In this document: positions 27,780-28,792 of the stretch, piece after piece | How the letters are laid out: each line of letters begins with the position of its first letter | How positions within the stretch are numbered: position 1 is the first letter of the stretch | Position numbers and translations under genes: made by a program | The notes under the pieces: model-generated | What the model saw: only the letters and a program-made list of their open reading frames with translations | Told to the model about the DNA's origin: nothing | Databases searched by the model: none | Assembly: GCF_938028185.1 (NCBI RefSeq) | Contig: NZ_CALJAH010000069.1 | Coordinates: 1-33,729, forward strand | Source of the DNA: an uncultured Cardiobacterium sp. | Lineage (GTDB): Bacteria; Pseudomonadota; Gammaproteobacteria; Cardiobacteriales; Cardiobacteriaceae | Reading direction: 5' to 3' | Length of the DNA stretch: 33,729 bases

Positions 27780-28724
27780 ATGCCCTTAATGAAAAACTGG
27801 AAAACCTTCCGCGAACAACTGGAACTGCTGAAATCACGCGGATTGCGCGTTGAAAACGAAAAACGGGCATTGGATTATTTGGAGCGTATCGGCTATTACC
27901 GCCTGAGCGGTTACGCATACCCCCTGCGGCAAAAAGAAGCAAATAATCCCACCCGCTACAGCGATACCTTCCCGCCTGACGTCAGCTTTGAACACATCCT
28001 GCAACTCTACATCTTCGACAAAAAGCTGCGCCTGCTTGCCCTGGACGCGCTGGAACGCATCGAAGTCGCCTTGCGGGTGGACGTAAGCTACAACCTTGGC
28101 GCACAAGACCCGCTCGCCCATCACGATTCCAAATACTTCGACCCAAAATTTGACCATGCGGGCTGGTTTGAACAATACGAAAAACTGCTGGAACGCGCGG
28201 CAAAGGCAAACAGCGCCATCGTCAAACATCACCAACACAAATACGGCGGCGCGTTACCCATATGGGCAGCGAGCGAAATTTGGGATTTTGGTGCATTGGC
28301 CAATCTGTATCGCGGCATGAAGCCGATGGCGCAAGAAAAAATTGCCCATAAATACGGTATTAAAAGCGGCAAACATCTTGGCAACTATCTGCACGGATTT
28401 AACTTTATCCGCAATATCGCCGCCCACCATAGCCGCCTTTGGAACCGAAACATGATTGGCCGTCCAACCCTGAAAGGTCTGGCGGATTCTGAATGGAAAC
28501 ATCTCTCTGAAGACAAAATCTTTCCTTCATTCTGCCTGATGCAACTCATGCTGAAAAAAATTTGCCCAAACTCACAGTGGGGCAGTCGCTTCAAAAAGCT
28601 GTTACAAGAATTTCCGCCCATCGACAGCCGTATCATCTCCTTGCAAGATTTCGGCCTGACCGTAGATATAGAAAACTGGCCGTTATGGGCAGATAAAAAA
28701 GAGCCCCCGGCCTTGAACTCCTGA
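27780..28724 (+). CDS. Abi family (Abi_2/AbiD/AbiF-like) HEPN protein
   Basis: KTFREQLELLKSRGL, LERIGYYRLSGY, LYIFDKKLR...LERIEVALR, LPIWAASE, HEPN RNIAAHHSRLWNR; start 27780 or 27789. Confidence 0.9.
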   Translation: MPLMKNWKTFREQLELLKSRGLRVENEKRALDYLERIGYYRLSGYAYPLRQKEANNPTRYSDTFPPDVSFEHILQLYIFDKKLRLLALDALERIEVALRVDVSYNLGAQDPLAHHDSKYFDPKFDHAGWFEQYEKLLERAAKANSAIVKHHQHKYGGALPIWAASEIWDFGALANLYRGMKPMAQEKIAHKYGIKSGKHLGNYLHGFNFIRNIAAHHSRLWNRNMIGRPTLKGLADSEWKHLSEDKIFPSFCLMQLMLKKICPNSQWGSRFKKLLQEFPPIDSRIISLQDFGLTVDIENWPLWADKKEPPALNS

Positions 28725-28758
28725 TACGCATATCAGGCAAAACCGGGGGGATTGATGC
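28695..28758 (-). ncRNA. Putative Abi-associated structured ncRNA (candidate RNA antitoxin)
   Basis: Own minus-strand promoter; long bulged hairpin CCCCCGG-UUUUG-CCUGAUA(UGCG)UAUCAGG-AGUU-CAAGG-CCGGGGG followed by CUC-U6. Confidence 0.6.
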
Positions 28759-28763
28759 GGCGG

Positions 28764-28792
28764 ATTATAGCGGAACGTGGCTAAATTCCCAA
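28764..28792 (-). promoter_or_regulatory. Sigma70-like promoter for the Abi-convergent RNA
   Basis: Minus strand TTGGGA (28792-87), 17-bp spacer, TATAAT (28769-64). Confidence 0.65.

Follow-up and report, generated by a model that had tools for sequence, protein, structure and literature searches.

A small RNA gene convergent on the 3′ end of an AbiF-family HEPN gene in Cardiobacterium is conserved with its protein partner and is a candidate RNA antitoxin

The window analyzed here, a stretch of 33,729 nucleotides (nt) from an uncultured Cardiobacterium sp. (assembly GCF_938028185.1, contig NZ_CALJAH010000069.1, positions 1 to 33,729), carries an AbiD/F-family gene, abi, and a small RNA gene that converges on its 3′ end. 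The abi gene (27780-28724, plus strand) is an intact open reading frame for a 314-residue, HEPN ribonuclease-like putative toxin. Its product matches Pfam PF07751 (Abi_2) with an E-value of 4.7e-52 (residues 33-222, profile positions 2-184 of 184), in line with the family assignment that an earlier note on this DNA had proposed to check, and the PADLOC AbiD model with an E-value of 1.9e-62. It also matches chain A of PDB entry 8VZ6 (PbAbiF; deposition title ‘Abi family protein’) at an E-value of 2.4e-35, with query residues 2-286 aligned to chain residues 6-287. This entry is the complex of PbAbiF with its non-coding RNA (ncRNA) according to PMC12737573. The intact HEPN R-x4-H motif that the earlier note had read in the protein, RNIAAH, is found at residues 211-216 (R211 and H216; 28410-28427, plus strand), and R211, N212, A215, H216 and H217 are invariant among seven homologues. 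RNIAAH aligns with the RN..CH stretch of 8VZ6, which holds R210 and H215 of PbAbiF, and an R210/H215 double mutant of PbAbiF is reported to be inactive (PMC12373285). By homology, the abi product is an AbiD/F-family HEPN protein and a full-length homologue of PbAbiF.

At the abi 3′ end, a 63-nt unit on the minus strand (28695-28757) is identified by its fold, a covariance model and its conservation as a small RNA gene, the candidate source of an AbiF antitoxin RNA; we refer to this RNA as the W type. The predicted RNA comprises an 8-nt leader, an outer helix of 12 base pairs (bp; 28749-28738 with 28715-28704), a 7-bp inner helix (28737-28731 with 28726-28720) closed by a 4-nt loop, and a 4-nt bulge on the 3′ side (AGUU, 28719-28716), then CUCUUUUUU, with U6 at 28700-28695. 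The minus-strand fold has a predicted energy of -29.4 kcal/mol (z -3.79), which 1 of 200 shuffled sequences equals, and the plus-strand fold loses two pairs of the middle helix and reaches -24.8 kcal/mol. The earlier description of a unit of ~65 nt, with a 19-bp hairpin, a 4-nt bulge and U6 and with a middle helix that pairs fully on the minus strand only, is therefore borne out. The covariance model for this RNA type, R2, matches 28695-28757 with 77.2 bits. As had also been noted, the RNA runs antisense across the last nine codons of abi and the stop codon (28722-24), 30 nt of the coding end. On the plus strand the hairpin is not followed by a U-run in the window; transcription of abi therefore probably continues across it, which would make the abi transcripts complementary to the RNA.

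The minus-strand promoter that the earlier note had placed ahead of this unit, TTGGGA-17-TATAAT pointing at abi, is present in the sequence. The −10 box TATAAT (28764-28769) ends 6 nt before the first position of the covariance model and is separated by a 17-nt spacer from the −35-like TTGGGA (28787-28792), which matches four of six consensus positions. Taken alone, the promoter match is not significant: 2.8 kb contains three promoter-like sites, compared with 3.7 ± 2.3 in shuffled sequence. It becomes significant through the comparative data.

The −35-like element is made by the last codons of yafQ, the nearer gene of a dinJ–yafQ type II toxin–antitoxin (TA) cassette (28772-29434, minus strand) that lies between the −10 box of the RNA gene and a TPR gene and is convergent with abi. 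The cassette contains yafQ (28781-29101, minus strand; Pfam YafQ_toxin, 2.1e-25) and dinJ/relB (29058-29321, minus strand; Pfam RelB, 3.7e-19), and the hairpin begins 31 nt past the yafQ stop codon. Inside yafQ there is a second, perfect 12-bp hairpin with a T-run on the plus strand (28809-28846; -25.8 kcal/mol, z -7.3, equaled by none of 200 shuffles). Transcripts of abi that continue past the RNA gene could end at this hairpin, in which case the abi and dinJ–yafQ transcripts would overlap by ~150 nt.

Comparison with close relatives indicates that dinJ–yafQ is an insertion specific to the window's genome and that it replaced the ancestral −35 box, because all close relatives are without it and their homology to the window stops at 28771 and resumes at ~29435. 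The cassette is absent from two related genomes (G007 and G004) and from metagenome contigs L100-L104 and L109. In G007, a member of the same genus whose abi is 98% identical to that of the window, homology spans the hairpin and TATAAT, breaks at 28771 and restarts at ~29435-29448. None of the six metagenome contigs codes for YafQ or DinJ, and one public contig joins 28771 to 29435, the cassette-free form. In G007 and these contigs the RNA lies behind TTGAC(A/T)-16 nt-TATAAT, a match to 11-12 of 12 consensus positions (12 of 12 in G007), and upstream of the RNA is the divergent TPR gene, with no convergent gene to terminate. L100, L101 and L109 are identical to G007; L103 and L104 likewise keep the hairpin and promoter without dinJ–yafQ; and L102 (92% identity) resembles them except at one stem position, where C in place of U makes a G-C pair out of a G·U pair. 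The earlier note had offered as a refutation that the hairpin might be unconserved and act only as the terminator of dinJ–yafQ, and this is not what the relatives show. Of the promoter that it described, TTGGGA stands as a sequence, although not as an ancestral element, since it was created by the end of yafQ. In the window, dinJ–yafQ would have landed on the −35 box of the RNA gene, and the RNA may now be made from the hybrid promoter, as the 3′ end of the dinJ–yafQ transcript, or both; transcription of dinJ–yafQ should extend into the RNA gene and end at the terminator there. A type II operon that now runs into a candidate type III antitoxin is a curiosity of this window.

Conservation at greater distance was assessed in the best 80 of at least 497 confirmed relatives (among 600 pattern matches), taking one genome per species at 35-53% protein identity. 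The 80 loci include members of Haemophilus, Uruburuella, Neisseria, Ignatzschineria, Oligella, Moraxella, Marinobacter, Pseudomonas, Vibrio, Aeromonas and Sphingobium. Already in relatives from the same order, a promoter, a hairpin and a U-run converge on the abi gene right after its stop codon, with differing sequences. The RNAs were sorted by eye into three sets, W (the window's type), T1/T3 and T2, and aligned, and covariance models R2, R1 and R3, respectively, represent these sets. At an E-value of 1e-5 or better, 79 of the 80 loci have a covariance-model match at abi (R1, 38; R2, 5; R3, 36), most of these being seeds that match by construction; loci recovered without being seeds include L025, L029, L049, L055, L058, L064, L070, L073, L087, L090, L092, L098, L106 and L110. 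The remaining locus, L027, gives a weak match of 16.4 bits, yet it has its own promoter and a short hairpin. Of the 79 units, 75 lie downstream of abi and converge on it, and the other four precede it on the same strand. Covariance-model matches were used in place of a simple hairpin scan, which chose the wrong hairpin in eight loci (L004, L009, L046, L054, L060, L087, L088 and L106) and missed three (L025, L029 and L058).

The association with abi is also seen when the search starts from the RNA. Across ~469 kb of loci, all matches lie at abi ends, save for the second copies of tandem pairs in L015, L046 and L079. R3 finds exactly one match per genome, at abi, in five of five whole genomes; its lack of any match in 151 class-level genomes (E-value up to 1e-5) has value as a specificity control only. 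R1 gives seven matches in five whole genomes, five of them at abi, one beside a 30-residue C-terminal remnant of abi and one, weak, at a contig end. Together, 10 of the 12 matches from these RNA-first searches are at an intact abi gene and one is beside the remnant. The tandem units stand behind a single abi gene at 1315-1366 and 1440-1491 in L015 and, as two different RNA types, at 2596-2655 and 2710-2763 in L046 and at 2981-3035 and 3101-3158 in L079. The doubling is reminiscent of RCd22, which has two abiF motifs, and of the solved complex, whose stoichiometry is 2:2. In two Neisseriaceae loci (L021 and L022), a separate terminator, formed by two uptake-sequence-like repeats in inverted orientation, lies just past the RNA promoter.

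We compared the pairing of each RNA type with that obtained when the partners were slid out of register. For the W type (12 sequences), 82% of the cells in the paired columns can pair, against 34-60% with slid partners, and 12 of 19 pairs show double changes. The corresponding values are 90.6% against 28-42%, with 63 double-change cells, for T1/T3 (35 sequences) and 97.9% against 32-64%, with 50 double-change cells, for T2 (32 sequences). In none of the three types did any of 500 shuffles reach the observed value. Because the structures were derived from these same, mutually related sequences, the controls overstate the signal somewhat; compensatory pair types are nevertheless numerous in all three types. 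The covariation that the earlier note wished to see examined in the hairpin downstream of Abi homologues is thus present in W, T1/T3 and T2 alike.

The strand and the start of the RNA can be addressed with the same alignments. Pairs that are G·U on the RNA strand, and would be A·C mismatches if read on the abi strand, outnumber the opposite case by 112 to 3 in T2 and by 75 to 3 in T1/T3, which places the RNA on the strand opposite abi for these two types and, more weakly, for W. Just upstream of the RNA, 55 of 79 loci match the sigma-70 consensus at 9 or more of 12 positions and 34 of 79 at 10 or more, compared with 1.1% and 0.06%, respectively, of 5000 control positions. The distance from the end of the −10 box to the first model position is 5-6 nt in 53 of the 55 loci with strong promoters, and for this reason the RNA is predicted to start at ~28756-28757 in the window, in agreement with the start at ~28757 proposed earlier.

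The RNA types are distributed along the Abi protein phylogeny rather than across it. A FastTree phylogeny was made from 95 Abi proteins, omitting duplicates, fragments and broken genes (L002, L005, L012-L014, L018, L019, L023, L049, L092, L100, L101, L103, L104, L109 and L111). Loci with RF03085, the Rfam family of known AbiF ncRNAs, fall on the outgroup side. The next group has a T1 RNA upstream on the same strand in all five of its members (L064, L070, L073 and L090, plus L110). Then comes a clade of 84 of the 95 proteins, whose RNAs are placed downstream and convergently; it spans Gamma-, Beta- and Alphaproteobacteria and a few other taxa. T2 corresponds to one clade of 35 rows (support 99), and W to one clade of nine rows, the window among them (support 99), nested within T1. 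The placement of L008, a long branch, is unsure. Six RNA labels require 9 changes on this tree, compared with a mean of 45.9 when shuffled. By this measure the RNA type follows the Abi protein, and the simplest history of the arrangement would be a single relocation from upstream-sense to downstream-convergent.

In the window's own genus, the abi gene is intact in the window and in L102. In G007 (locus L002; L100, L101 and L109 are identical), a TGA replaces the tryptophan codon at position 168, and the reading frame ends two codons before that of the window. In L103 and L104 abi is frameshifted, although these are low-coverage contigs in which errors are possible, and in G004 it is deleted. 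Whatever the state of abi, every locus of the genus (six distinct) has an intact RNA gene and promoter, and elsewhere L130 keeps the RNA beside the 30-residue abi remnant. Decaying TA loci typically lose the toxin and keep the antidote. Loss of abi with retention of the RNA would fit such decay, and it also leaves room for an independent role of the RNA.

Copies of the W-type RNA are also found away from abi. R2 gives 11 matches in 61 related genomes, six adjoining abi, four solitary and one weak (G037, 32 bits). When solitary copies are compared with L003, homology is restricted to the promoter and the RNA. One of them, L118 in G029, is flanked by direct repeats of ~25 nt (1418-1442 and 1612-1638) that recur elsewhere in the locus and hint at repeat-mediated deletion or movement.

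The region around abi, between aspS and the TPR gene, appears variable. A gene for a protein with a cold-shock domain (CSD) and an Excalibur domain (27157-27765, plus strand) ends 14 nt upstream of abi; it was considered as a third component and dropped, as it neighbors abi in the window's genus and in no other locus. The segment 25681-27114 contains a second CSD protein gene (25762-26397) and a 169-codon open reading frame without a family (26570-27079), and both CSD proteins of the window match the PADLOC model CSD_V. This segment is missing from L102, the closest intact relative, in which ~27115 follows directly on the end of aspS. The stretch from aspS to the TPR gene is therefore a variable islet assembled from several insertions.

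Taken together, the comparisons establish, at the level of sequence, a conserved, structured RNA unit that co-evolves with Abi: a real, unannotated small RNA gene that is paired, in inverted architecture, with an AbiF-family putative toxin, of which its product is most likely the antidote. We consider it probable, well short of certain, that the locus as a whole is a type III-like TA or abortive-infection module of the AbiF kind, in which a HEPN toxin is held by the product of a convergent 3′ RNA antitoxin gene. The core of the earlier proposal, an AbiF-family HEPN protein with a self-promoted, convergent, structured ncRNA as candidate antitoxin, is backed by conservation, covariation, promoter enrichment and co-phylogeny. 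The predicted arrangement is a separate small gene placed directly after abi on the opposite strand, in which a sigma-70 promoter drives a 63-nt hairpin RNA that ends at an intrinsic terminator. By homology with PbAbiF–AbiFr and AbiFCd–RCd22, the RNA would fold on its own, bind an AbiF dimer and block the HEPN site. In topological terms, the single-stranded 3′ linker of RF03085 may have its counterpart in the unpaired bulge on the 3′ side of W-type RNAs and, in T1, in a short internal loop on that same side. A fall in RNA supply, or displacement of the RNA in the course of phage infection, would free the nuclease and stop growth. The convergent placement may in addition damp abi through transcription collision or through pairing with the abi 3′ end.

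Several observations weigh against this interpretation. The bulge sequence is not conserved, being AGUU in the window and a different 4-nt bulge in G007. The G·U evidence for the strand is weak in the W type (19 against 11). The −35 box of the window, with only four of six consensus positions, is not ancestral. The W-type RNA is not detectably similar to RF03085, and R1 (E-value up to 1) and R3 (E-value up to 0.01) find no match to the window RNA; with R1, L102 gives 14.5 bits. The case for homology between the W type and the other types is built on position, spacing, architecture and the protein tree. Finally, solitary W-type genes without abi, between housekeeping genes, are present in 4 of the 11 R2-positive genomes (G004, G029, G046 and G033), and they mean that the RNA could have a life of its own. 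The scores of R2 against T1 or T2 RNAs likewise do not exceed 16-19 bits, and a single family model for all RNA types was set aside as unsupported by such cross-type scores.

The alternative that survives best is a cis-antisense RNA, similar to those of type I systems, that lowers abi expression by pairing with the 3′ end or 3′ untranslated region of the abi mRNA or by collision. The convergent arrangement in 75 of 79 loci, the 30-nt overlap with the coding end in the window and the probable complementarity of abi transcripts to the RNA, given the missing plus-strand U-run, all speak for it. However, in 87 downstream loci the hairpin itself overlaps the abi coding region in only 10, eight of which belong to the window's genus; in 21 the overlap involves the U-run alone, and in 56 there is none. 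In the basal clade, all five loci have a T1 RNA ahead of abi on the same strand. There the RNA cannot be antisense to abi, which implies action in trans. Conserved internal loops and covarying helices are moreover traits of a protein-bound RNA, and the homologous protein in 8VZ6 was solved with a bound ncRNA. The overlap thus appears lineage-specific and, together with the upstream-sense copies, favors protein binding over antisense. Where the earlier note had left the choice between protein binding and antisense pairing even, both were weighed and the balance now leans toward protein binding; cis-antisense action as the main mechanism seems unlikely.

It is also conceivable that the unit is an independent small RNA or mobile RNA module with a secondary link to abi, acting on other targets or spreading alone as an ‘anti-Abi’ immunity RNA. 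The solitary copies in G004, G029, G046 and G033, with homology limited to promoter and RNA, and the copy between direct repeats in L118 are what such a module might leave. The agreement of RNA type with the Abi protein tree argues against it, as do the RNA-first matches, nearly all of them at abi or its remnant, and the solitary copies may be leftovers of abi loss; we regard this explanation as decidedly improbable. A mere terminator of dinJ–yafQ, or a bidirectional one, with a promoter match by chance, would suit the position of the hairpin and U6 just past the yafQ stop and the unremarkable frequency of promoter-like sites in the window, but it is contradicted by the close relatives that keep the hairpin and a consensus promoter without the cassette, by the unit in 79 of 80 distant loci whatever the neighboring gene, by its conserved 5′ leader and by the promoter enrichment, and can be set aside as extremely improbable.

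Returning to the antitoxin interpretation, the convergent RNA of the 84-protein clade differs from the upstream RF03085 RNA and escapes annotation based on Rfam. Should the RNA be an antitoxin, many ‘orphan’ AbiD/F genes in defense catalogues would be two-component systems, the RNA would be needed to clone and express AbiD/F toxins, and the co-diversifying RNA types would provide a natural experiment on the specificity between RNA and nuclease. A broader and more tentative idea, which we hold to be possible rather than probable, is that proteobacterial AbiD/F genes have a widespread, unannotated superfamily of cognate small RNAs, with at least three covarying classes absent from Rfam. These might have arisen by one flip from upstream-sense to 3′-convergent and might combine a sequestering antitoxin with damping by collision or antisense pairing, and solitary copies could serve as standing ‘anti-AbiF’ immunity. 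If this is true, the convergent loci offer a second, independent architecture for studying how AbiF-type RNAs diversify with their nuclease, for which an ancestry of Cas13 and its CRISPR RNA (crRNA) has been proposed.

Two groups of known systems resemble the window in part. In the type I pairs txpA/RatA and bsrG/SR4 of Bacillus subtilis, a convergent antisense RNA overlaps the 3′ end of the toxin gene, the toxins are small membrane peptides and the RNA acts by pairing. The window shares the convergent small RNA overlapping the 3′ end of a putative toxin gene, but the protein here is a HEPN protein of 314 residues rather than a small hydrophobic peptide, and the coding overlap, with the hairpin reaching the coding region in 10 of 87 loci, is not conserved. 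ToxIN and AbiQ have a different toxin fold, and their antitoxin is an upstream tandem repeat array processed by the toxin. The window differs from them in having a single hairpin gene on the opposite strand. The likeness lies in the proposal that an RNA antitoxin binds an RNase toxin with a role in abortive infection, as PMC13064643 describes for these systems. A plain terminator would be expected only where a convergent gene needs termination, and here the hairpin and promoter are kept where dinJ–yafQ is absent.

The closest comparison is with AbiF itself. AbiF with its ncRNA has recently been characterized as a type III TA and abortive-infection system and proposed as an ancestor of Cas13 and its crRNA. 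In the systems described in PMC12373285, PMC13064643, PMC12737573 and PMC12165695, the AbiF ncRNA carries RF03085, precedes the toxin gene in sense orientation and is joined to it in one transcript by read-through. We found no description of a downstream or convergent AbiF RNA in the full-text literature searched, although Zilberzwige-Tal et al. (Cell 2025) may already note one. Neither RF03085 nor any other relevant Rfam family matches the window at the gathering score, and no relevant family for the downstream RNA emerged from a scan of 27000-29500 at E-values up to 10 or of 14 related loci at E-values up to 1; the window RNA and the 11 of those loci that carry the unit are accordingly not members of the Rfam abiF family, a membership that the earlier note had suggested checking. 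RF03085 is found, upstream on the same strand, only in the most distant Abi homologues, L010 (57.5 bits) and L011 (53.5 bits; gathering score 37), with L009 and L016 below the gathering score at 31 bits. RF03085 and the window unit are nonetheless alike in being small hairpins with an internal loop or linker that are tied to Abi_2 genes. T1/T3 RNAs and RF03085 also share a short C-C-U-C-U stretch straight after the 5′ arm of the outer helix, a likeness that is merely suggestive because R1 does not match RF03085 loci.

The PbAbiF–AbiFr type III TA system (8VZ6; Zilberzwige-Tal et al., Cell 2025, as cited in later papers) and AbiFCd–RCd22 of C. difficile (PMC12373285) have proteins of a family homologous to the window abi, with R-x4-H at the aligned position. 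They also share with the window a short, structured ncRNA adjoining the gene, with its own sigma-70-type promoter and an intrinsic terminator. Their ncRNA, however, is encoded ahead of the toxin gene in the sense direction and shares its transcript through read-through (PMC12373285, PMC13064643), whereas in the window the RNA gene follows abi in convergent orientation, and its hairpin is longer, has two helices and is not matched by RF03085. An upstream same-strand ncRNA, as in AbiF type III systems, is seen with these RNA types in the basal clade only (L064, L070, L073, L090 and L110) and not in the window, and a conserved, structured ncRNA beside the toxin gene, the other feature of those systems, is found in 79 of the 80 loci.

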